Shown: positions 16,301 through 53,325 of the stretch, in pieces
Position numbering within the stretch: position 1 is the stretch's first letter
Layout: each line of letters begins with the position of its first letter
Source of the DNA: Candidatus Zixiibacteriota bacterium
GTDB lineage: Bacteria > UBP14 > UBA6098 > JBKHBT01
Direction: 5' to 3'
NCBI GenBank assembly: GCA_046542255.1
Contig: JBKHBT010000012.1
Span: 1-55,972, forward strand
DNA length: 55,972 nt
Notes under the pieces: model-generated
What the model was told of the DNA's origin: nothing
The model's input: the letters and a program-made list of their open reading frames with translations, nothing else
Database searches by the model: none
Program-made: the position numbers and the translations under genes

Positions 16301-17692
16301 ATGGAACTCAAGAGATTACTGGTTTTATTTTCTATCATTGCCATCCTCTTATTTGCTTTCGGTTGCCCGGATGATGATGATGATGATGACAATAATAGCA
16401 ATGATGATGACTCAGCCATGTACGAAGCATCTGGCGCAGTCGATTCTAATGGAGAATTATTGCTTGAAACAGAAAGTGGCGCAAAGCTTGCAATTCCTAG
16501 ATATGCTGTACCATTGACTATCGAAGAAGAAACAGGCACAATGGTCTTTTCTATAGAAAGAGATTTGTCTATAAGCCCTGTTTTGGATGAAGGGGCATCG
16601 AGTGCTTCTGATGTCTATCGCTTTGGGCCTGATGGTTTCGTTTTTGCTTCACCAGTTAGAGTAACAATACCTATCGATAATTTCGATGAGTCCAAGGAAT
16701 ATGAGATTTATCGTATTAATCAGACAACAGGTGAAGCCGAAGTATATTCATCATTTATCGATGAAGAAAATGCCACGATTTCAGCATATACATATCATCT
16801 TTCACCCTGGGCAATCTCAGAAAGAGAATACCGGGAACGCTCTGGTGGGGCCGTTCGCATTTCAAATACGAGTTCGACACATGCACTTCATGTCAGCGTA
16901 GCGGATTTCGTACCGGCCTATCCCATGGCAGATACAGTTACCTGTTCGCTCTATGATGCATATTTTCCGGCATTAGGCTCCGGTTCTTTTGTGGCCAGTA
17001 GCGGACTTTGGCATCTTCCACAGGGCACATATACCCTATGTTTCCGCATGTCGGAACAGGGCACTTTCATGAATCCACCAGGCGATCCTGTTCGCTGGTA
17101 TGAGCATGATGTTATAATTGATCAGCCCTGGTCAAGAACCAGTCCAAATATTTCGGATGAGTTCTCATATGGCCGTCCATCCGATGATGCTGTCGATGGC
17201 TTTTGTGATTGCCGTCCAGAACCGACTCCTTCAGCTGGAACCGGCGATGTTCAGGTAACATTGACATGGCATAATTCTGATCCGATAGACCTCGACCTCT
17301 GGATAATTGAACCAGATAGTACAGTATGTAATTATGCTACAACCCCAACTGCAAGCGGTGGCACTTTAGATAGAGACAATCTCTGTGGATCAACCTATAT
17401 CAATGGAAGGCCCGAGAATATCTTCTGGAGCTCCGCACCTGAAGGTACATATCGCGTTCAAGTTGACTGGTTTAGCGATTGTGGCAATGGCATGAGTTCA
17501 CAGGGCTATGATGTCAGAATTGTAAATGGTTCAGATGTCAGGACATTCTCAGGAACAATCCAGGCAGAAGAGACAATCGATATTGCAACATTTACCGTAT
17601 CAAGGCCTTCATTAGCAAAATCTTCGGGTAATTCGATATTCTATATCGGCCAGAAGACAGAAAGAATTGCCGAAAGGCCACCGAAATATTAA
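16301..17692 (+). CDS. Secreted or lipoprotein with a poly-Asp linker and a C-terminal proprotein-convertase P-domain-like beta-sandwich
   Basis: Signal peptide ending in FGC, followed by a D7NNSND3 tract. The C-terminus DLDLWIIEPDSTVC...GTYRVQVDW fits the P-domain/PPC pattern. Confidence 0.5.
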   Translation: MELKRLLVLFSIIAILLFAFGCPDDDDDDDNNSNDDDSAMYEASGAVDSNGELLLETESGAKLAIPRYAVPLTIEEETGTMVFSIERDLSISPVLDEGASSASDVYRFGPDGFVFASPVRVTIPIDNFDESKEYEIYRINQTTGEAEVYSSFIDEENATISAYTYHLSPWAISEREYRERSGGAVRISNTSSTHALHVSVADFVPAYPMADTVTCSLYDAYFPALGSGSFVASSGLWHLPQGTYTLCFRMSEQGTFMNPPGDPVRWYEHDVIIDQPWSRTSPNISDEFSYGRPSDDAVDGFCDCRPEPTPSAGTGDVQVTLTWHNSDPIDLDLWIIEPDSTVCNYATTPTASGGTLDRDNLCGSTYINGRPENIFWSSAPEGTYRVQVDWFSDCGNGMSSQGYDVRIVNGSDVRTFSGTIQAEETIDIATFTVSRPSLAKSSGNSIFYIGQKTERIAERPPKY

Positions 17693-17842
17693 GTGTTTAG
17701 CTAGATTTCATTTTTTTCTGAAAAAAAAAAGAAAAAAGCTTGCATAATAAATTATACGCCCTATATTAATAATGATAAGTTCTTATTAATGTAGTTTTGT
17801 TTCGGGGTTAGGGCACTGATACTAAATTTTTTAAGAACTTAG

Positions 17843-17872
17843 GGCGGCTTTTATAAAGCCGCCTTTTTTATT
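17843..17872 (+). terminator. Rho-independent terminator
   Basis: Stem GGCGGCTTT/AAAGCCGCC followed by TTTTTTATT. Confidence 0.65.
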
Positions 17873-25000: not shown

Positions 25001-25309
25001 ATGAAAAAACTTCTACCGCTCATTTTGTTAATACCAATAGTCTTTAGCCAAACAGAAATCAACTATAATCCAGCACACTACTTTGTCGGCAATATTTATA
25101 CAAACCGCACTGTCGAAGAAGTCAAATTTTCGATAGGTTCGACCGGAGGCCCACAGAAATGGGATTTCACTACTTTTCCTGATGGTGATGAATCTGATTT
25201 CGAGGTAGTCGAATACTCTTCTTCTCTACCCGAAGTCGCCAGTTGCGCTATGACTCCTAATTATGTGATTTACAATCACACAATTACTCTTTTAAAGCCA
25301 TATATATAG
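25001..25309 (+). CDS. N-terminal fragment (signal peptide plus ~80 aa) of a T9SS cargo protein. Its last codons and stop lie inside repeat copy B.
   Basis: Signal peptide MKKLLPLILLIPIVFSQ. The ORF terminates at TAG within the repeat's (TA)n segment. Confidence 0.45.
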   Translation: MKKLLPLILLIPIVFSQTEINYNPAHYFVGNIYTNRTVEEVKFSIGSTGGPQKWDFTTFPDGDESDFEVVEYSSSLPEVASCAMTPNYVIYNHTITLLKPYI

Positions 25310-25398
25310 CATATATATAATACTTAATATATTTAGCAAAAGGATTTACTGATGTTTTAGCCTGAAAAGTATGACAATGCGGAGCAGCGCATTGTCTG
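25282..25398 (+). repeat. Copy B of the ~115-bp repeat family, inserted between the two halves of a T9SS cargo gene
   Basis: Best-conserved copy, with a perfect 9-bp hairpin GACAATGCG-GAGCAG-CGCATTGTC. Confidence 0.7.
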
Positions 25399-26174
25399 AT
25401 ACTTCTGAAATCGAAGGATATGGATATATGCATCAAAACTCTTCCCGAGTTATTGGACTCGGGCTTTGGGGAGAAATGACTGACGATGGTTCGACATATT
25501 CACTAACAGCCTTTAATGAAGACTACAGCCCTTCGAATACATTCCCGATGAATTATGGAGACAGCTGGATCGAAACTTCTTATGGAACAGGCGAAATAAA
25601 TTATATCGTTACCATGGACTATGAATACTGGGACACAAGCTATTACGAAATCGATGCATGGGGACAGATTATTTTACCGATAGGCACTTTCGATGCATTA
25701 CGAGTAAAAAAGCGTCATCATAGGCATCAGGTTTCTGACCATTTTCTTTTTGGATTCGATAAATTCGAAAGAGAATTTGGTTGGCAATGGTACTGCTATG
25801 AAGTCGGCTTTGCTGGTTCATGGATGGGCCCAAAAGACACCCTGGATAATCTACCCGATTCGACATTTACGATAGGCAAGCTTAGCTATCAGATTGCAAA
25901 TTCAATGCTCTCCATTTCTGAAAAAGAAGCAAAGCCGGCGAAAGTTGAGATTTTAACATATCCTAATCCATTTAATTCATCGATTTCGATCCTTACGGAT
26001 GATAATGCAGATATATCGATTTTCGATTTGAATGGCAAGTGTATATTGCGAAATAGCTTGCCTTCAGGGGTTTTTAGATGGCAACCAAAAGGCGATTTAA
26101 CTTCCGGGATTTATATTATCGAGATAGAATCCCATAATGGCCGTATCCAAAAGCAAGTATTCTATATCGGATAG
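25371..26174 (+). CDS. C-terminal fragment of a secreted protein with a T9SS C-terminal sorting domain. It has no signal peptide of its own.
   Basis: C-terminus LTYPNPFNSSISI...DISIFDLNGKCI...GIYIIEIE. The annotated ATG (ATGACAATG) lies inside the repeat core. Confidence 0.5.
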   Translation: MTMRSSALSDTSEIEGYGYMHQNSSRVIGLGLWGEMTDDGSTYSLTAFNEDYSPSNTFPMNYGDSWIETSYGTGEINYIVTMDYEYWDTSYYEIDAWGQIILPIGTFDALRVKKRHHRHQVSDHFLFGFDKFEREFGWQWYCYEVGFAGSWMGPKDTLDNLPDSTFTIGKLSYQIANSMLSISEKEAKPAKVEILTYPNPFNSSISILTDDNADISIFDLNGKCILRNSLPSGVFRWQPKGDLTSGIYIIEIESHNGRIQKQVFYIG

Positions 26175-26258
26175 TTTATTTATTAGTTACATCTTTTTCA
26201 TTGCACTTGACAAGCCTTGCAGCCCTATTTATATTTTCGTAAGAATAAAGGAGATGTA

Positions 26259-28474: not shown

Positions 28475-29401
28475 ATGAAGAATTTAATGCTATTTACAAT
28501 ATTAATTGGTATTTTTAACCTAATAGGTGCAGATTTGCCTGATAATGCCGGTACAAGCAGTTTCCCATTTCTAAAGAATATCCAAAGTACAAGAAGCGAG
28601 GCTATGGGGTCGGCATATTGCGGACTGCCGGCCGAGAATCCCTATGCTCTTGATAATCCTGCTCTATTGCCTTTTGCAAATAGAAATGCAGGCTTTTCAT
28701 ATAAAAACTTATGGGGTTTCGCAAATGGTGCTACGGCCTATTATATGCAGAGCAAAGAGGAAACCAATGGATTTGGTTTTTACGCGCATTATATCGGTTA
28801 TGGCAAAGTTAAAGAAACTGATTTTGAGGGTAATGTGCTGGGCGAGCTATCGCCTTCCGATATGGTTCTTGCCGGAGGTTACGGCCATAGGTTCACTAAA
28901 AGCTTCTCTGTGGGGGGAATTGGAAAGCTCATCTATGAAAATGCTGGGGATTTGAATGCTTCCGGGATTGCCCTTGATGCCGGACTATTGTATCGCTTTA
29001 TTAGAGCAAGAGCACAATTGGGTTTTATTGTCAAGAATCTGGGGATGCAGTTATCAGCTTTTGGCGATGAGACATACCCACTCCCTATGCAAATAGGTTT
29101 TGGCGGGAGTTCGAGAATACCCGGATTGCCGCTTCTTTTGTCCGCACAGGGTGATTACCTTGCTGATGACGGCTTTATGATTGGTGCCGGTGCAGAAATA
29201 TTAGCACTTGGGCCAATAAAGCCCCGAATCGGCTATAGAATGATGCCCAAAATCGATTCCGACCTCGCTGAAAACGAAAACAAAAAAGGACTTTCGGCCG
29301 GATTCGGCATCGAAGTGGATAGCTTCAAATTCGACTATGCACTTCGGCATTACGGAGTATTAGGACTGACGCATAACCTGGCTCTGGAATATCGATTCTA
29401 A
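28475..29401 (+). CDS. Putative outer-membrane beta-barrel protein (PorP/PorQ/UPF0164-like)
   Basis: Signal peptide, alternating amphipathic Gly/aromatic-rich strands, and a C-terminal YRF (terminal Phe). Family assignment is uncertain. Confidence 0.4.
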   Translation: MKNLMLFTILIGIFNLIGADLPDNAGTSSFPFLKNIQSTRSEAMGSAYCGLPAENPYALDNPALLPFANRNAGFSYKNLWGFANGATAYYMQSKEETNGFGFYAHYIGYGKVKETDFEGNVLGELSPSDMVLAGGYGHRFTKSFSVGGIGKLIYENAGDLNASGIALDAGLLYRFIRARAQLGFIVKNLGMQLSAFGDETYPLPMQIGFGGSSRIPGLPLLLSAQGDYLADDGFMIGAGAEILALGPIKPRIGYRMMPKIDSDLAENENKKGLSAGFGIEVDSFKFDYALRHYGVLGLTHNLALEYRF

Positions 29402-29555
29402 TTACATCGATTCTGTTTTATCGGAATGTAAACTTTTCTATTTGCATAATATTAAGAAACTTATAGCTCTAGAACCTTTGGCCTATAATGGTGATATTCA
29501 GTAACTATATAAACAAGGCTACCGTTCTCGATACATAGCTCCCAGCCTAATACAC

Positions 29556-29667
29556 CGCTACAAAGCTCTACCCCCCACTGCCCTCGCTACAAAGCTCTGC
29601 CCCCCACTGCCCTCGCTACAAAGCTCTGCTCCCCACTGCCCTCGCTACAAAGCTCTGCTTTGTAGCG
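29556..29667. repeat. Tandem array of about 3.9 copies of a GC-rich 29-bp unit (CGCTACAAAGCTCTGCCCCCCACTGCCCT). The last partial unit forms the hairpin CGCTACAAAG-CTCTG-CTTTGTAGCG.
   Basis: Units at 29556-29584, 29585-29613 and 29614-29642, with a partial unit at 29643-29667. Only 2-3 variable positions. No spacers, so this is not a CRISPR array. Confidence 0.8.
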
Positions 29668-29908
29668 CAAGCTTTCCGAAGCTCCGCTTCTATTCTTTAC
29701 TAATACCATAAAGAAGCAGAGCTTCTCAAGGAGGATAAAAATAAAATTTATTTACTTTACATAAATTTTAACACTGAATCTGGGTAATTAAGGCTAAAGC
29801 TCAAATCTGACAATCTCTTAAATCCATTCTCAATCTTATGAAAGTGTTTTGGTAGATATCTTAATATGTCTTGACGAAAGCCGGTGGCGATTTTATTTTA
29901 CAGATGCT

Positions 29909-30649
29909 ATGAAAACGATGATAATAAAAATCTTGATTGTTTCTTTGATTTGTTTTTCTCTATTTGGCGAGAACAATATCGACAAGACGCTTCGAACGGC
30001 TGATCAGATGATTCGAGTCGGCGATTATGAAAAGGCTGAAGACCAGCTTCGAGTAGCACTTCGCAATAATCCCGAAAATGGTGAGATTCTCTGGCGACTT
30101 GGCAAAGCACTCAATCGCAAAGCTATGCGCCTTTCTGGCATGAAAAGACATGATACATTCGAAGAGGCCAGCCAGATTCTGGCAAAAGCCATCAAATATG
30201 ATAGAAAATCTCCAGAACCACATGTCGAGATGGCGAGGACTCTCGGATATATGGGACTTTTCAAACCAGATTGGGACAATTATAATCTTGCAGGCAGGAT
30301 TTCCGAAGAACTCGATTATGCCATAAAACAGGACGCTGAATATGCTGATGCATACTTTGTCTATGGACTATGGAATCGCTTTGTCTGCAAAAGATCTTTA
30401 CTTGTCAGAATGCCTTATGACCTTGGCGAAGCCTGCGATGAATTAGCTCTCGAAAATCTACAAAAAGCAGTTGAATATGATGATGAAAATGCAGAATATA
30501 TGCTGGAGCTTGGAAAACAGTATTTGTATATGGAGCGTTTTGATGAAGCCAGAGATATTTTTAAAAAAACAACCGAATTTAAGAGCAATCTTTTCACAAA
30601 AAGATATATCAAACAGGCAGAAGAACAACTCGAAACTATGGACAAATAG
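29909..30649 (+). CDS. Secreted TPR-like repeat protein
   Basis: Signal peptide MKTMIIKILIVSLICFSLFG and helical repeat content. The ORF is open from 29849. Confidence 0.5.
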   Translation: MKTMIIKILIVSLICFSLFGENNIDKTLRTADQMIRVGDYEKAEDQLRVALRNNPENGEILWRLGKALNRKAMRLSGMKRHDTFEEASQILAKAIKYDRKSPEPHVEMARTLGYMGLFKPDWDNYNLAGRISEELDYAIKQDAEYADAYFVYGLWNRFVCKRSLLVRMPYDLGEACDELALENLQKAVEYDDENAEYMLELGKQYLYMERFDEARDIFKKTTEFKSNLFTKRYIKQAEEQLETMDK

Positions 30650-44598: not shown

Positions 44599-45225
44599 AT
44601 GTTAGGACTATTTGCGAAAAAGGTTGGAATGACAACCATCTTTGGGGAAGATGGCGCTGCCATACCAGTAACCGTCATGCGTGCAGGGCCCTGTAAGGTC
44701 GTTCAGGTAAAAACACCTGACCTCGACAAATACAGTGCTCTTCAACTTGGTTTCGAACCTACCAACAAAAGGGTAACGAAGCCAAAACTTGGACATTTCA
44801 AGAAAGCACGCGTCCAGCCGCACAAAAAAATCGGAGAATTCCGTGTTCCCCCTGATATCGCAGGCAAATACAAAGCCGGCGATACAATAGATGTTTCTAT
44901 TTTTGAAGCAGGAAACAAAGTCTCCTGCACAGGAACTACCAAAGGAAAAGGCTTTCAGGGTACAGTTAGACGCTGGAAATTTGGCGGCGGACCTAAGACT
45001 CATGGCCAAAAGGATAAATTCCGTGCCCCCGGCTCAATTGGTGCAAGCGCTACACCTTCAAAAGTGATAAAAGGCATGAAGATGGCCGGCCAGATGGGCA
45101 ATGCCAGAAGAACAATTAAAGGCCTTAGTGTTGTTAAAGTCGACCAGGAAAACAATCTGCTTCTGGTTAAAGGTTCTGTACCCGGCGCAAAAGGCGGATT
45201 TATTAAAATTGTACAGGAGCGATGA
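44599..45225 (+). CDS. rplC: 50S ribosomal protein L3
   Basis: GLFAKKVGMTTIF... is an L3 signature, and operon position fits. Confidence 0.95.
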   Translation: MLGLFAKKVGMTTIFGEDGAAIPVTVMRAGPCKVVQVKTPDLDKYSALQLGFEPTNKRVTKPKLGHFKKARVQPHKKIGEFRVPPDIAGKYKAGDTIDVSIFEAGNKVSCTGTTKGKGFQGTVRRWKFGGGPKTHGQKDKFRAPGSIGASATPSKVIKGMKMAGQMGNARRTIKGLSVVKVDQENNLLLVKGSVPGAKGGFIKIVQER

Positions 45226-45860
45226 AGATGTTAAAAGCAGCACTTTATAATTCAAATGGTGAAAATGCTGGCGATATTGAGCTTCCAGTTGATATTTTTG
45301 GAATAGAACCCAATGAAGCTGTTGTTCATCAATACGTTAAGGCATATTTAGCAAATCAAAGGCAGGGTTCCGCCAAAGTAAAAACAAGGTCAGAAGTTTC
45401 TGGCGGCGGTAGAAAACCTTGGCGTCAAAAAGGCACGGGTAGGGCAAGAGTCGGTACGATTAGGTCTCCATTATGGAGACACGGTGGTGTCATATTCGGG
45501 CCATCTCCAAGATCTTATCGAAGCAGATTACCCAAAAAAATGAAAAGACTCGCATTGCTTTCGGTTCTATCCGACAGAGCAAGTGAAGAAAAAATCGATA
45601 TCATAGAATCGCCAAAAATTGATAAACCTTCTACAAGAGAAGTGAAATCATTAATCAACAAAGTTGAAACCGGCGATGATAAGAAAATCCTTATGGTTAC
45701 TGCCAAATCTGATAAGAATATCTATCTTTCAGCAAGAAATATCAAAGGATTAGAGATCAGTCATATGGGTGAGCTAAATACTTACCAGATATTGAAAGCT
45801 GATAGAGTTATCTTTACCTCGGATGCACTAAATCTTATGAAGGAGCTATGGACATCATGA
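45222..45860 (+). CDS. rplD: 50S ribosomal protein L4
   Basis: [16 protein letters not shown] motif. Confidence 0.95.
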
Positions 45861-46147
45861 AGAACCCAAGAGATATTATTATAGCGCCGCTTCTTACAGA
45901 AAAAAGCACCTTGAAAAGAGAAGCTGAGAATGTATATTCTTTCAAAGTTGCTAGAGGCGCGAATAAAAGGCAGATCAAGGAAGCTTTCGAGGAACTTTTC
46001 AAGGTCGAAGTAATTTCTGTAAATACAATGAATAACTTAGGCAAGATGCGAAGAATGGGCAGATTCACAGGAAGACGCCCTTCATGGAAAAAAGCAAATG
46101 TCAAACTCGCTCCAGGTGGAACGATACCGATATTTGAAGGCATTTAA
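45848..46147 (+). CDS. rplW: 50S ribosomal protein L23
   Basis: [11 protein letters not shown]...FKV motif and operon position. Confidence 0.9.
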
Positions 46148-46170
46148 TTAGGAAATAAAGGAAATTTAAA

Positions 46171-47001
46171 ATGGGTACAAAAAGGTATAAACCCACAACA
46201 CCAACTCAACGCTACCGCGAGATCAATAGTTACGAAGAATTGACTCGCTCGAAACCAGAAAAATCTCTACTCCGCAAGCATACCAAAACCGGTGGTAGAA
46301 ATGCTGATGGTAGAATTACGGTTCGAGGTAGAAGCGGTGGCAATAAGAGAAGGTACAGGGTTATCGATTTCAAGCGAGATAAGCATGATATTCCTGCAAG
46401 GGTAGTATCTATTGAATACGATCCCAATAGAACTGCTTTTATATCTCTTGTGCATTATGCTGACGGAGAAAAGCGTTATATTCTCGCAACACAGAAAAGC
46501 AAAGTAGGCGATGAGATCATAGCTGGCGAAAATGCACCTTTCAAGAATGGATGCGCATTGCCGCTTCGTGCGATACCTCTTGGTACGAGAGTACATAATA
46601 TCGAAATGCAACCCAAAGGCGGCGGTAAGATTGTGCGGGCTGCTGGACAGAGCGCTCAGATTGTCGGCCGTGAGAAGGGTTTTGTCATTTTAAGGCTCCC
46701 GTCCAGAGAAATCCGCATGTTCCCGGGCGATTGTTTTGCGACTATCGGAATTATATCAAATCCCGATAATTCAAATATTACATATGGAAAAGCAGGCGCC
46801 CGAAGATGGATTGGACGCTCACCAAAAGTAAGAGGTATGGCTATGAATCCGATCGACCATCCTCACGGCGGTGGAGAAGGCAGAAACAAGGGTTACAAAA
46901 GGCCTACATCACCAACTGGTGTCCCATCTAAGGGCTATAAGACAAGAAATCCAAAGAAGAAGTCTAATCGACACATATTAAAGAATAGGAAGTCGAAGTA
47001 G
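46171..47001 (+). CDS. rplB: 50S ribosomal protein L2
   Basis: HPHGGGEGR motif; 276 aa. Confidence 0.95.
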
Positions 47002-47002
47002 T

Positions 47003-47278
47003 ATGGCAAGATCATTAAAAAAAGGACCGTATGTAGATCCAAAGCTGCTTAAGAAGATTGAAGAACTTAATGAGTCCGGCCAGCAGAAGGTCGTAAAGAC
47101 TTATTCACGCGCATGTACAATTGTTCCGGAATTCATCGGACACACTATATCAGTGCACAATGGCCACAAATTCATACCAGTTTACATAACCGAAAACTTA
47201 GTCGGCCATAAACTTGGTGAATTCTCGCTTACAAGAACTTTCCGCGGACATGGCGGCTCAAAAGTAACCGAGGCGTAA
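47003..47278 (+). CDS. rpsS: 30S ribosomal protein S19
   Basis: SLKKGPYVD...[13 protein letters not shown]. Confidence 0.95.
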
Positions 47279-47359
47279 TATTTTATAAGCCTAAAGCTTC
47301 TTAAGTGCTTGTTAAAACAAGATTTATAAAGCGCTTTTATTTAGGAGGAATTAATAAAT

Positions 47360-47704
47360 ATGGTATCAAAAGCTAGAGCAAAATATGTCAGGATTTCGCC
47401 CAAGAAGCTAAGGCTTATTACAGGCGAACTGAAAGGGCAACCAGCTCAGGAAAGTTTGCAGAAACTATCTCTGCAAAAAACCCGAATTGCATCGATCGCA
47501 GAAAACACATTGAAACAGGCTGTCGCAAATGCTTTATCCGAATCGAATGAAATCGATGAAGAGGACCTCTTTATCAAGAAAATTTATGTCGATAAAGCTA
47601 ATCATCTGCCAAGATTCCGTGCAGGTGCAATGGGACGTTATAAGCCCTTAAAGCATCGCTACAGCCATTTAACAATAGAACTCGACCAATACGAAATTAA
47701 ATAA
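47360..47704 (+). CDS. rplV: 50S ribosomal protein L22
   Basis: AKYVRISPKKLRL... and operon position. Confidence 0.9.
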   Translation: MVSKARAKYVRISPKKLRLITGELKGQPAQESLQKLSLQKTRIASIAENTLKQAVANALSESNEIDEEDLFIKKIYVDKANHLPRFRAGAMGRYKPLKHRYSHLTIELDQYEIK

Positions 47705-47715
47705 AGGGGATTATT

Positions 47716-48453
47716 TTGGGTCAGAAATCACATCCTATAGCCACAAGGCTCGGTATTTCCAGAGGCTGGAATTCTAATTGGTTTTCTCAGGGAAAAGATT
47801 TTGTTACTAATCTACAAGAGGATATCAAAATCAGAGAATACACTTTAACCCGCCTGGATGATGCCGATGTATCTAGTGTCGAGATTCTTCGTTCCCCAAA
47901 GCGTGTAGTGATAAATGTTTACACCGCAAGACCGGGCATTGTTATCGGTAAAAGCGGTATTCGCGTTGAGGGATTCAAAAAAGAACTCGAACACCTTACA
48001 AGCAAAGAAATACAACTGAATGTACTCGAAATTAATAAACCGGAACTCGATGCATACCTTGTATCTAAGAATATTGCCCGACAGCTCGAAGGCCGTGTAA
48101 ATCATCGTCGTGCGATGAAAAGGGCCATTACGCAGTCCATGCGAATGGGCGCAAAAGGCATTAAGATAATCTGCCGTGGCAGACTTCGTGGTGCAGAAAT
48201 TGCGCATCATGAAGCTTATCAAGAAGGTCTCGTACCACTCCATACATATCGAGCAAAAATCGATTATGCCAAAACAACGGCACATACTACTTATGGCTCG
48301 GTTGGAGTTAAGGTATGGATCTGCAAAGGCGAAGTTCTTGGCGGAATGAGAGAGGTTCTCGAGATGGAAGAATTTGCGGCCAAAAAGCGCCAGAAACGAT
48401 CGCGTGGTGGCGGCGGCAAACGAAGGCCTCGTTCCGGTTCAAGAAGGCGTTAA
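47716..48453 (+). CDS. rpsC: 30S ribosomal protein S3
   Basis: MGQKSHPIATRLGISRGWNSNWF is a KH-domain S3 signature. Confidence 0.95.
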   Translation: MGQKSHPIATRLGISRGWNSNWFSQGKDFVTNLQEDIKIREYTLTRLDDADVSSVEILRSPKRVVINVYTARPGIVIGKSGIRVEGFKKELEHLTSKEIQLNVLEINKPELDAYLVSKNIARQLEGRVNHRRAMKRAITQSMRMGAKGIKIICRGRLRGAEIAHHEAYQEGLVPLHTYRAKIDYAKTTAHTTYGSVGVKVWICKGEVLGGMREVLEMEEFAAKKRQKRSRGGGGKRRPRSGSRRR

Positions 48454-48477
48454 TAGTAATTTACTCAGGAGAAAATA

Positions 48478-48906
48478 ATGTTACAACCAACAAGATCAAA
48501 ATATCGCAAACATCATCGAGGCCGAATGAAAGGCAATGCCCAAAGAGGCAATTCTCTGAATTTCGGTGATTTTGGTATGAAGGCATTAGAACCTGGATGG
48601 ATTACTGCAAATCAGATAGAATCAGCTCGTGTTGCAGTTATGCGCCATGTTAAAAGAAGCGGAAAATTATGGATCAATATATTCCCGCAGAAAGTTGTTA
48701 CGAAAACAGCGGCTGAAACAAGAATGGGAAAAGGAAAAGGCGCTCCCGATCATTGGGTTGCAGTAGTTAAACCAGGTAGAATAATGATGGAACTTTCAGG
48801 TGTCGATGAAAAAGTAGCTTATAATGCATTCAAGCTCGCAGCCAGAAAAATGCCGATTAAGACAAGATTCTTCAGTAAAGCTACCAGGGAAGGTGCGAGA
48901 TTATGA
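48478..48906 (+). CDS. rplP: 50S ribosomal protein L16
   Basis: [15 protein letters not shown]...[23 protein letters not shown]. Confidence 0.95.
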
Positions 48907-49115
48907 AGACATTCCAACTTCGCGATATGACTGAAGAGCAGCTTATTGCTCATATGTTTGAAGTTGAAGAAGAAATCTTCAACCTTCGTATGCAGAAAGC
49001 AATAAAGCAAATTCCAGATGTGAAAAAGCTATCTAATCTCAAGCACGAACTTGCCAGGTGTAAGACCATTTTGCAAGAACATAACGATGGCATACGCAAG
49101 TTAAAAGGCGCTTGA
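48903..49115 (+). CDS. rpmC: 50S ribosomal protein L29
   Basis: LRDMTEEQL...[11 protein letters not shown]; ~70 aa. Confidence 0.9.
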
Positions 49116-49130
49116 TTTTTCAAAGTATTA

Positions 49131-49165
49131 AAATCCTGCTTTCCCGGGCAGGATTTTAATATTTT
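49131..49165 (+). terminator. Rho-independent terminator after rpmC
   Basis: 9-bp stem AAAATCCTG/CAGGATTTT with a CTTTCCCGGG loop, followed by a T-rich tail. Confidence 0.55.
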
Positions 49166-49176
49166 AAAGAGTAAAT

Positions 49177-50112
49177 ATGAAAATTGCGATATCCTGTGGA
49201 GATCCTGCCGGAATTGGCCCTGAGATAGTCAATAAGGCTTTATCACATTTCGAAAATGACAATATTAAATTTCGATATTTTTGCAATAGTCATCTCATAG
49301 AAAAACTCTATGCAATAATGCCACAAGTTCCTAAAATCAAATCAAATACAGATATAATCGATATAGATGTTGATATAGAATCGCCCAAATTCGGCAAAGC
49401 AAGCCCGGAAGGCGGTGAAATATCCTGGCAATCTTTTATACAGGCTACCGAAGATGTAATTTCCGGGCACTCTGATGCCATTGTAACAGCTCCTATCAAC
49501 AAATATTCCTGGAAATTGGCTGGTTTCGACTGCCCCGGACATACAGATAAGCTTGCCGAAATATTCAGAATTGATGATTTTGCAATGGCTTTTATCAAAG
49601 AGCCGTATCGACTGATATTGCAGACAATTCACGAACCTCTCTCGCATATAAGTACTATGATTACATCCGATTCTGTTTACAAAAAAATCATTATGGCTGC
49701 TGATTTCTTGAATCGAATTGGCGAAGATATCCATATCGATGTACTTGGATTGAATCCTCATGCTGGCGAGAAAGGAAAATTTGGCCATGAAGAAAAGCCA
49801 ATCAAAGATGCAATTATAAAGGCCCAAAATGAAGGCATCGATTGCTATGGGCCGCATGTGCCGGATGCTTTTTTCACTAAATGGCAAAATTCCCCCGAAG
49901 GCATGGTTATAGCAATGTATCACGACCAGGGTTTGATACCTTTCAAGATGATTTCGAAAGGTTATGGCGTAAATACGACTCTCGGCCTGCCAATTATCCG
50001 CACTTCTCCTGAACATGGTACAGCCATGGATATTGCGGGTAAAAACCTGGCATATCCCACCAGCATGATCGAAGCAATCAAGCTAGCAATAAAGCTGCAC
50101 AAAACAACCTAA
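49177..50112 (+). CDS. pdxA: 4-hydroxythreonine-4-phosphate dehydrogenase
   Basis: MKIAISCGDPAGIGPEI start, metal-binding His motifs (GHTD, NPHAGE) and ~310 aa. Confidence 0.8.
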   Translation: MKIAISCGDPAGIGPEIVNKALSHFENDNIKFRYFCNSHLIEKLYAIMPQVPKIKSNTDIIDIDVDIESPKFGKASPEGGEISWQSFIQATEDVISGHSDAIVTAPINKYSWKLAGFDCPGHTDKLAEIFRIDDFAMAFIKEPYRLILQTIHEPLSHISTMITSDSVYKKIIMAADFLNRIGEDIHIDVLGLNPHAGEKGKFGHEEKPIKDAIIKAQNEGIDCYGPHVPDAFFTKWQNSPEGMVIAMYHDQGLIPFKMISKGYGVNTTLGLPIIRTSPEHGTAMDIAGKNLAYPTSMIEAIKLAIKLHKTT

Positions 50113-52168: not shown

Positions 52169-52507
52169 ATGTCACAATATCATGAACCAGTTGAAGAACT
52201 GAGTACTAAGACAAGAAACATTACACGAGCAATACAGAGCTTCAAAGAAGAGCTCGAGGCCATCGATTGGTACAATCAGCGAGTAGATACAACCAATGAT
52301 GAATCGCTAAAAAAAATTCTCGAACATAATCGCGATGAAGAGATCGAACATGCATGTATGACCCTCGAATGGCTGAGGCGCAATATGGATGCCTGGGATG
52401 ATGAGCTTAAGACCTATCTATTCACAGAAGGCGATATTACAAAGCTCGAAGAGGGTGAAGAAGATGATGAAGAAGACAGTACCGATCTTCAGATTGGAAA
52501 ACTTTAA
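52169..52507 (+). CDS. Encapsulin-associated ferritin-like cargo protein (EncFtn) with a C-terminal targeting peptide
   Basis: LEAIDWYNQRVD...ILEHNRDEEIEHACMTLEWLRRN...LKTYLFTEGDI closely matches the EncFtn family as I recall it (R. rubrum type). An acidic linker leads to C-terminal DLQIGKL. AAGGAG lies 6 nt before the ATG at 52169. It sits immediately upstream of the encapsulin gene. Confidence 0.75.
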   Translation: MSQYHEPVEELSTKTRNITRAIQSFKEELEAIDWYNQRVDTTNDESLKKILEHNRDEEIEHACMTLEWLRRNMDAWDDELKTYLFTEGDITKLEEGEEDDEEDSTDLQIGKL

Positions 52508-52530: not shown

Positions 52531-53325
52531 ATGGATATTTTTAGAAAATCACTTGCGCCTATTAGCGAAGCTGCCTGGGATGAAATCAATGAGCAGGCCA
52601 AAATAACACTTACTACCTTTCTATCTGCAAGAAAGTTTGTCGATGTAGAAGGCCCTAAAGGACTTGATTTTTCGGCAGTTAATCTCGGTAGATTATCGAT
52701 CGAGCCGGACCATGAAAAAGATGATGTAAAATTTGGAATGCGCAAAGTCTTGCCTCTTATCGAAACGCGGATACCATTCGAGCTGAATATCTGGGAACTC
52801 GATGATGCTGCTCGAGGCGCAGAAGATATCGATCTTGGACCACTTGAAGATGCCGCAGAGAAAATTGCAAAATTTGAAGATAATGCAATATACAATGGCT
52901 TCAAAAAAGCAGCGATAGCAGGACTAAAAGAAGTTTCCGAGCACAAAATTATGACATGCCCCAAAGATGCAGAAGAAGCTCTTTGCTCGATTCCAGAGGG
53001 TATTCGAATACTCAAAGAATCAGCCATAGATGGACCCTATGCATTGGTAGTCAATCCTGCAAAATGGCAGGAAATTGCAGCTTATGCCAAGGGATATCCC
53101 CTGAGAAGACAAATCGAAGAGATGTTAGATGGCAAATTGGTCTTCTCGCCAAATATTGATGGAATGTATCTTGTTTCACAGCGCGGTGGCGATATGATAC
53201 TTACAATCGGACAGGACATGACAATCGGCTATGATGGACATGATTCAAAGAAGGTCAAGCTCTATCTTATGGAGTCATTCACTTTCCATATTACCGATCC
53301 TGCTGCCTTCATTGTTTTTGGCTAA
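52531..53325 (+). CDS. Family 1 encapsulin shell protein (HK97 fold; linocin M18 family)
   Basis: MDIFRKSLAPISEAAWDEINEQA...RKFVDVEGPKGLDF closely parallels the T. maritima encapsulin ([23 protein letters not shown]...RKFVDVEGPYGWEY). 264 aa. C-terminus GQDMTIGYDGHD...LYLMESFTFHITDP. Confidence 0.85.
   Translation: MDIFRKSLAPISEAAWDEINEQAKITLTTFLSARKFVDVEGPKGLDFSAVNLGRLSIEPDHEKDDVKFGMRKVLPLIETRIPFELNIWELDDAARGAEDIDLGPLEDAAEKIAKFEDNAIYNGFKKAAIAGLKEVSEHKIMTCPKDAEEALCSIPEGIRILKESAIDGPYALVVNPAKWQEIAAYAKGYPLRRQIEEMLDGKLVFSPNIDGMYLVSQRGGDMILTIGQDMTIGYDGHDSKKVKLYLMESFTFHITDPAAFIVFG

Follow-up and report, generated by a model that had tools for sequence, protein, structure and literature searches.

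A C-rich 29-bp tandem repeat array, very probably an unstable minisatellite, between two same-strand operons of a Candidatus Zixiibacteriota bacterium

The DNA analysed here (the window) is a stretch of 55,972 nucleotides from Candidatus Zixiibacteriota bacterium (GCA_046542255.1, contig JBKHBT010000012.1), and our subject is an array of 29-bp direct repeats located in it at 29556-29658. The array lies in a 507-bp spacer (29402-29908) between two operons of the same strand. According to Pfam domains of the neighbours, porQ is the last gene of an upstream lapA-lapB(TPR/zinc-ribbon)-SPOR-porQ cluster; a gene for a secreted TPR protein follows the spacer. Tandem Repeats Finder assigns the array a period of 29, 3.6 copies, 97% matches and a score of 192, which makes it the strongest tandem array of the window (the next-best scores 65). 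When up to three mismatches are allowed, the consensus 29-mer matches the window at 29556, 29585 and 29614 only, and none of 100 dinucleotide-preserving shuffles contains a match. The three full units vary at just two positions (A15 in unit 1, T17 in unit 3). They are followed by a partial fourth unit, 16-17 nt long, whose first 17 nt equal those of unit 3. Head-to-tail units of about 10-100 bp, more similar than expected by chance, are what characterizes bacterial minisatellites or variable number tandem repeats (VNTRs), and the array has them. A preliminary description, made from the letters of the stretch, had reported three near-identical 29-bp units and a partial unit closing a hairpin at 29556-29667; Tandem Repeats Finder, the mismatch search and folding confirm this arrangement.

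A second assembly of the same organism (GCA_964582205.1, contig CAZORF010000031.1) covers positions 18475-39372 of the window. Over these 20.9 kb, the two sequences differ by one single-nucleotide polymorphism (25731, G/A) and one indel, and by nothing else. The indel is an extra exact copy of unit 3, giving 4.6 copies compared with 3.6 in the window. By this comparison, the array is the most mutable site in 21 kb. A VNTR was among the options of the preliminary description, which proposed to compare copy number between strains; at the level of assemblies, the near-clonal genome indeed carries one more unit, i.e. copy number changes by a whole unit between close genomes. This gain matches the prediction of single-unit replication slippage. 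The same difference would arise if an assembler collapsed two identical adjacent units, and the extra unit does not differ from the one beside it. Moreover, k-mer-based Logan contigs (SRR11308339) break at the array, one ending at 29454 and another starting at 29646; they reveal no additional allele and independently confirm the right-hand array junction. On the other hand, the whole array measures 103-132 bp, which is below a typical 150-nt read, its units carry distinguishing variants, and both assemblies are otherwise colinear without any further indel. An assembly artefact behind the difference between three and four copies of an otherwise real array is, in our view, unlikely.

Origin of the array can be envisaged as follows. 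A 16-17-nt direct repeat including the left arm of a pre-existing hairpin would have allowed slipped-strand mispairing, and both the hairpin and the asymmetry between a G-rich and a C-rich strand would promote additional slippage events. On either side of the array, degenerate copies (see Table 1 and below) would then represent older units. Near-identical central units with degenerate ones around them are what a minisatellite in continual turnover usually looks like. We regard this part of the explanation, a VNTR generated by slippage, as highly probable.

Table 1. Features of the spacer that contains the 29-bp array, and the genes bordering it
Feature	Position	Strand	Sequence and remarks
porQ, gene for PorV/PorQ-family outer-membrane protein	28475..29401	+	open reading frame; NCBI name; PorQ homologues
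22-nt imperfect inverted repeat, left arm	29399..29420	+	overlaps porQ stop codon; pairs with 29769-29790
TATAAT hexamer	29484..29489	+	-35 is TTATAG (3/6); weak as promoter; not listed by promoter scan
degenerate proto-unit	29529..29555	+	GATACATAGCTCCCAGCC resembles GCTACAAAGCTCTGCCCC at 2-nt offset; 60% direct copy; weak nhmmer match 29530-29541
unit 1	29556..29584	+	CGCTACAAAGCTCTACCCCCCACTGCCCT; A at position 15
unit 2 (consensus)	29585..29613	+	CGCTACAAAGCTCTGCCCCCCACTGCCCT
unit 3	29614..29642	+	CGCTACAAAGCTCTGCTCCCCACTGCCCT; T at position 17; duplicated in the second assembly
hairpin closed by partial unit	29643..29667	+	CGCTACAAAGC-TCT-GCTTTGTAGCG; 11-bp stem, 3-nt loop; no U-tract after it
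palindrome GAAGC-TCC-GCTTC	29678-29690	+	GAAGCTCCGCTTC; T-rich tail TATTCTTTAC to 29700; weak intrinsic-terminator-like site
palindrome GAAGC-AGA-GCTTC	29713-29725 (element 29712..29725)	+	GAAGCAGAGCTTC; inverted copy of unit core AAGCTCTGCTT
orphan Shine-Dalgarno-like AAGGAGG	29728..29734	+	followed by ATAAAA-ATA; no ATG, GTG or TTG at expected distance
AT-only hairpin	29742..29770	+	TAAAATTTATTTA-CTT-TACATAAATTTTA; z -4.1
22-nt imperfect inverted repeat, right arm	29769..29790	+	bounds 392-bp segment 29399-29790
promoter-like TTGACG-17-TATTTT	29871..29899	+	directly before TPR gene start; array about 200 bp upstream of its -35
secreted TPR protein gene	29909..30649	+	first gene of TPR-DUF3857-M23 peptidase-holB operon

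The array is also exceptional in base composition. Its GC content (0.61-0.62) is the highest 100-nt value in the window, where the mean is 0.38 and a tRNA gene reaches 0.58, in line with the earlier statement that some 60% GC stands out in an AT-rich genome. Most of this is cytosine: each unit contains 15 C and 4 G, and the best 78-nt stretch (29566-29643; C=42, G=9, C/G 4.7) displays the largest excess of C over G in the window, 33 (z 6), the next best value being 17. Dimers of pyrimidine and C (YC) number 26 per 78 nt at the array as compared with a mean of 8.2 (standard deviation 3.1); elsewhere in the window, both strands considered, the maximum is 21. In RNA folds the units are predicted to be unpaired. 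On the minus strand, one relaxed G-quadruplex motif with a long loop occurs at 29600-29641; the canonical G3-N1-7 motif is absent from the array region, and a G-quadruplex is weakly supported at best.

Among the readings of the array that were rejected are a coding one and a CRISPR one. As to coding, three does not divide the period, the sole open frame through the array lacks ATG, GTG and TTG, and an extra unit would shift the frame. As to clustered regularly interspaced short palindromic repeats (CRISPR), the 29-bp units abut with start-to-start distance of 29, so there are no spacers, and the window contains no cas genes, in line with the preliminary description, which noted the missing spacers and did not expect cas genes. 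Pfam scans, covering nearly all open reading frames (ORFs) of at least 150 aa in the window, detected no cas genes and likewise no reverse transcriptase, transposase, integrase, toxin or rho genes.

We then considered what the array might do. A promoter and terminator scan found neither a canonical terminator nor a good promoter between 29402 and 29555, i.e. from the porQ stop codon to the array, which probably puts the array into the 3' tail of the preceding operon. Elsewhere in the window, spacers do contain clear TTGACA/TATAAT promoters and hairpin-plus-U terminators, and a promoter-like TTGACA-17-TATATT (26207-26235) precedes the lapA-lapB-SPOR-porQ cluster. The array would probably be transcribed with this cluster, as its untranslated 3' tail. 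According to the preliminary description, a TATAAT box would transcribe the array. The box does exist, but it has a -35 match of 3/6 only and fails the same scan that finds promoters of 11-12/12 in other spacers.

RNA of the array would measure about 100 nt, extremely rich in C, poor in G and without structure, with stable hairpins lacking U-tracts after it. RhoTermPredict looks for a 78-nt window with C/G above 1, followed by a hairpin within 150 nt (PMC6407284), and Rho utilization (rut) sites contain many YC dimers (PMC13613805). Stretch 29566-29643 has this C/G property over 78 nt, with regularly spaced C and little predicted structure, and candidate pause hairpins are located within 150 nt downstream (29643-29667, 29678-29690 and 29678-29725). 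Since unstructured C-rich RNA with downstream hairpins is the signature of a rut site and its pause hairpin, Rho-dependent termination is taken as the most likely effect of the array; it would insulate the downstream TPR operon. This effect, suggested by the sequence signature, is nevertheless only tentatively proposed, and the array may equally be a neutral by-product without selected function.

An independent small RNA would make use of the same features. Its transcript would start near 29495, from the TATAAT at 29484, and end at the hairpins at about 29667-29700, exposing three to four C-rich modules that would serve as repeated seeds for pairing with G-rich Shine-Dalgarno regions, or would sponge up an RNA-binding protein. 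The array is the GC-richest island in the long spacer of an AT-rich genome, its units are predicted to be single-stranded with stable hairpins after them, AGGAGG-type Shine-Dalgarno sequences of the genome could pair with such seeds, and the fold of a 211-nt region is more stable than those of shuffled sequences (z -2.9). However, no upstream promoter passes the scan, though good ones are easily found in other spacers, no hairpin-plus-U terminator follows the array, and the element is not conserved in any relative. Searches of Rfam at gathering and permissive thresholds yielded nothing credible in the spacer and only two tRNAs in the whole window; the best spacer match, BTnc231 on the minus strand, scores 20.9 bits, the threshold being 80.4. 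For a functional seed array, a varying copy number and recently homogeneous units would be unusual, and a unit with 15 C and 4 G cannot pair with itself. The structured small RNA of the preliminary description is thus weakened by unpaired units and by lack of both an Rfam family and a convincing upstream promoter, and we judge an independent small RNA improbable. A repeat that is C-rich on one strand mimics the GC signal of structured RNA without having the structure, which is a warning for scans that look for RNAs in GC-rich intergenic islands.

Several palindromes follow the full units. The hairpin at 29643-29667 has a DNA folding energy of -11.3 kcal/mol (z -6.3; 0 of 200 shuffles fold as well), and its right arm can pair with the 11 nt that open each unit. 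A second small inverted repeat and AAGGAGG after it, both mentioned in the preliminary description, are present at 29713-29725 and 29728-29734. This palindrome (29712-29725; -9.1 kcal/mol, z -4.4) pairs with 29678-29691 as a 14-bp stem, or with any unit core. The one at 29678-29690 is a third palindrome, overlooked earlier. Their common core, AAGC-N3-GCTT, is found three times within 75 bp at the array and once in the remaining window, with 1.4 expected in total. The core in the palindrome at 29678-29690 is situated exactly 29 bp past that of the 29643-29667 hairpin, which suggests that the periodicity runs on into a degenerate unit.

Direct repeats together with three palindromes might also be understood as iterons, that is sites for a regulator, nucleoid or replication protein, as was proposed earlier. 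Three AAGC-N3-GCTT motifs within 75 bp and a half-site in every unit would agree with it. But a period of 29 bp (2.76 helical turns) puts successive sites on different faces of the helix, no gene for a DNA-binding regulator or replication initiator is adjacent, and the motif is not seen in the other spacers of the window; in addition, a single hairpin that was duplicated accounts for the palindromes as its descendants. We find no support for iterons, which appear very improbable.

AAGGAGG occurs five times in the window. Its four other copies (16287 on the plus strand; 9357, 6993 and 6027 on the minus strand) sit 5-8 nt before gene starts. The copy at 29728 might be left over from a gene start that has decayed, or it might pair with the C-rich units. 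The 22-nt inverted repeat bounding the region has 17 of 22 matches, whereas 40 shuffles yielded at most 16, and when 29395-29795 is folded as RNA (401 nt, z -3.8), its arms make the closing stem. Target-site duplication flanking it was not seen in the sequence. Beside its left arm, ATCGATTCT is directly repeated at 29391 and 29406.

The orphan AAGGAGG and the bounding inverted repeat keep alive, at low probability, the idea of an acquired module. One form of it is a remnant, either an orphan antitoxin array of type III toxin-antitoxin kind whose toxin gene was deleted, or a 392-bp non-autonomous mobile element with 22-nt inverted repeats. Known type III families have units of 31-62 nt in 1.9-5.6 copies and are defined by array, palindrome, Shine-Dalgarno sequence and toxin (PMC3401426, Table 2). 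The order of parts fits this definition as far as the Shine-Dalgarno sequence: an array of 3.6-4.6 copies is followed by short palindromes (the 29643-29667 hairpin and those at 29678-29725) and by a perfect AAGGAGG, a motif that marks real gene starts at its other sites. Foreign-looking composition and an inverted repeat better than that of all 40 shuffles would suit either kind of remnant. Nevertheless, no ORF follows the Shine-Dalgarno sequence, only 173 bp are left before the TPR gene, and the 29-nt unit is below the known range. A complete type III locus was rejected, with no ORF after AAGGAGG and the secreted TPR protein as the next gene; this protein has only TPR matches in Pfam, and neither it nor its neighbours match a PADLOC defence family or a Pfam toxin domain. 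As regards a mobile element, parts of the module do not recur anywhere in the window, no target-site duplication is evident, and no transposase, integrase or phage genes are nearby. Such a remnant is most improbable. Hardly more credible is that 29399-29790 constitutes a self-contained acquired RNA module with expandable C-rich 29-nt units, terminator hairpins and a ribosome-binding site, which would represent an orphan or new repeat-RNA antitoxin or protein-sponge system, or else a new non-autonomous mobile element with a built-in Rho-loading insulator. A tRNA-Gly gene is located 7 kb from the array; dnaA, integrase and transposase were absent from the window by Pfam scans, with no formal test made of an origin or integration-site idea.

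The preliminary description placed the array upstream of the TPR gene. By position this is true, but it probably misleads: a promoter-like site (29871-29899) directly precedes the TPR gene, and the sole syntenic relative of this gene lacks the array. In this relative (TPR protein 60% identical), the order TPR-DUF3857-like-M23-...-radical SAM-...-plsY is retained, the TPR gene opens an operon divergent from mutS with an upstream spacer of 214 bp, and no tandem repeat was found in 18 kb. The TPR protein was correctly described as secreted, having a signal-peptide-like N-terminus (MKTMIIKILIVSLICFSLFG) if started at ATG 29909. The public annotation (234 aa, from TTG equivalent to 29945) removes this signal peptide. 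The relative likewise begins with a signal peptide, MKYTFLILAVFITLLGAD.

Position of the array raises the possibility of a cis-regulatory rheostat or phase-variable element for the TPR-DUF3857-M23-holB operon, in which unit number would alter spacing or read-through. Copy number does differ between near-clonal genomes, the array is upstream of a secreted-protein operon, and each unit shifts helical phase by about 0.76 turn. Known promoter-located repeat switches occupy positions in the -35/-10 spacer, whereas the array is far from there, some 200 bp upstream of the -35 hexamer predicted for the TPR gene. Neither an activator site nor a regulator gene is apparent, the operon of the syntenic relative is run from the 214-bp spacer, which has no repeats, and on/off switching is unlikely for an operon with holB, a replication gene that is essential. 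On balance, a rheostat is improbable.

Occurrence of the array in other genomes was examined by scanning collections with the 29-mer, any base being allowed at its two variable positions. There was no match in GTDB species representatives, JGI metagenomes or IMG/VR; a 29-mer serving elsewhere as a spacer-separated CRISPR repeat, the finding that would have contradicted the preliminary description, was therefore not encountered in any of these collections. The spacer had no blastn match in phage and plasmid collections, and no part of 29402-29908 has a second copy within the window. The hairpin-only pattern had one match in JGI metagenomes, a terminator palindrome, longer and unrelated, which follows a lipoprotein gene of a higher-GC organism; it was treated as chance because a 22-base palindrome has only 11 independent positions. 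The lineage, whose proteins are labelled 'Candidatus Zixiibacteriota bacterium' at NCBI, is very isolated: its nearest L2 is 73% identical, its nearest PorQ 37%, and there is the single TPR relative at 60%. No orthologous locus was found with PorQ among genome contigs. In the two closest PorQ homologues (37% and 34% identical), hardly any spacer, or none, separates the gene from the next one (10 bp in the nearer homologue). The array is not a conserved feature of either flanking operon. Comparison of the array therefore rests on two near-identical assemblies. A literature search by accession numbers retrieved no paper.

The rest of the window is ordinary chromosome, containing genes for ribosomal proteins L3, L4, L2 and S3, pdxA, pdxJ, ftsEX, encapsulin, ATP-binding cassette transporters, sensor kinases and several proteins sorted by the type IX secretion system. 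Some other observations were made there. Two copies were seen of a non-coding segment some 120 bp long (~245-370 and ~25277-25400, 87% identity); it contains a TATATA-rich tract and CAAAAGGNTTTACTGATGTTTTAGCCTGAAAAGT, then ATGACAATGC..AGCAGCGCATT, which form a 9-bp hairpin. The first copy precedes a 52-aa ORF and the second includes the start of a Por_Secre_tail ORF at 25371; the segment may be a duplicated promoter or leader, or a small RNA. In the ribosomal protein cluster (44599-50112), pdxA is found at 49177 where L16/L29/S17 are expected, and a 723-bp gap (48454-49176) follows S3. The gene for the encapsulin shell (52531-53325; Linocin_M18, E 7e-86), overlapped by a minus-strand ORF, lies between ftsEX and pdxJ, with a GAAGAGGATGAA tandem repeat just upstream (52448-52476). 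Finally, 16301-17692 encodes a 463-aa protein with a match to ZU5 (E 8e-8), a domain known chiefly from proteins of eukaryotes; the gene has a perfect AAGGAGG Shine-Dalgarno sequence and a canonical terminator at 17841-17865.

Taken together, we favour, with some reservation, the view that the array is a young, lineage-specific, non-coding minisatellite between same-strand operons, with the slippage origin and the Rho-type effect proposed above. Besides possible assembler collapse, several points weigh against this view. No rho gene was found within the window by Pfam scans. Other operon ends of the window use hairpin-plus-U terminators and have no comparable C-rich tract, so such a rut site is not a general feature of the genome. 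Any C-rich repeat scores as rut-like, whether it is used or not, and both the role of Rho and transcription through the array are predicted rather than observed. Slippage alone leaves the orphan AAGGAGG and the bounding 22-nt inverted repeat unexplained. As a hypervariable marker, the array can be of use for separating strains of a deeply branching uncultured bacterium, with little import beyond this organism; were the Rho interpretation true, it would be a natural case of a minisatellite creating a terminator at the end of an operon.

Similar arrangements of short repeats are known from several bacterial systems. The unit length of 29 bp is within the range of CRISPR repeats, which are also direct repeats, but units of the array have neither spacers between them nor an internal palindrome, and cas genes are missing from the window. 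With type III antitoxin arrays (ToxI, CptI, TenpI) the locus shares a tandem array in the range of 2-5.6 short direct repeats, a palindromic terminator and a ribosome-binding site. In contrast to them, it has no ToxN/CptN/TenpN-type toxin gene downstream, its unit is just below their length range (though 3.6-4.6 copies fit), and it is C-rich without similarity to the known antitoxin repeats tested. Pneumococcal BOX elements with variable boxB number, as well as repetitive extragenic palindromes and bacterial interspersed mosaic elements, resemble it in being intergenic and in combining variable internal tandem modules with ends that form stem-loops. Of these elements, however, a genome has tens to hundreds of scattered copies, whereas no second copy was found here within 56 kb of genome.

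Likeness to Rho-dependent terminators consists in more than 78 nt of C-rich, G-poor, unstructured, YC-dense and untranslated sequence after a stop codon, with hairpins within 150 nt, all of which is predicted from sequence in the present case. Natural rut sites, on the contrary, are not tandem repeats and are usually far less extreme. The array also resembles mycobacterial interspersed repetitive units (MIRU-VNTR) and loci used in multiple-locus VNTR analysis: these too are intergenic head-to-tail units of tens of bp between same-strand genes, with whole-unit changes between close genomes and degenerate units at the edges. Some MIRUs carry short ORFs coupled to flanking genes. MIRUs form a dispersed family of many loci, while a single locus is known here, with a strongly C-rich unit and with an ending hairpin built from the first 11 nt of the unit itself. 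The array is very probably a bacterial intergenic minisatellite of a known type, distinguished by its unusual composition.

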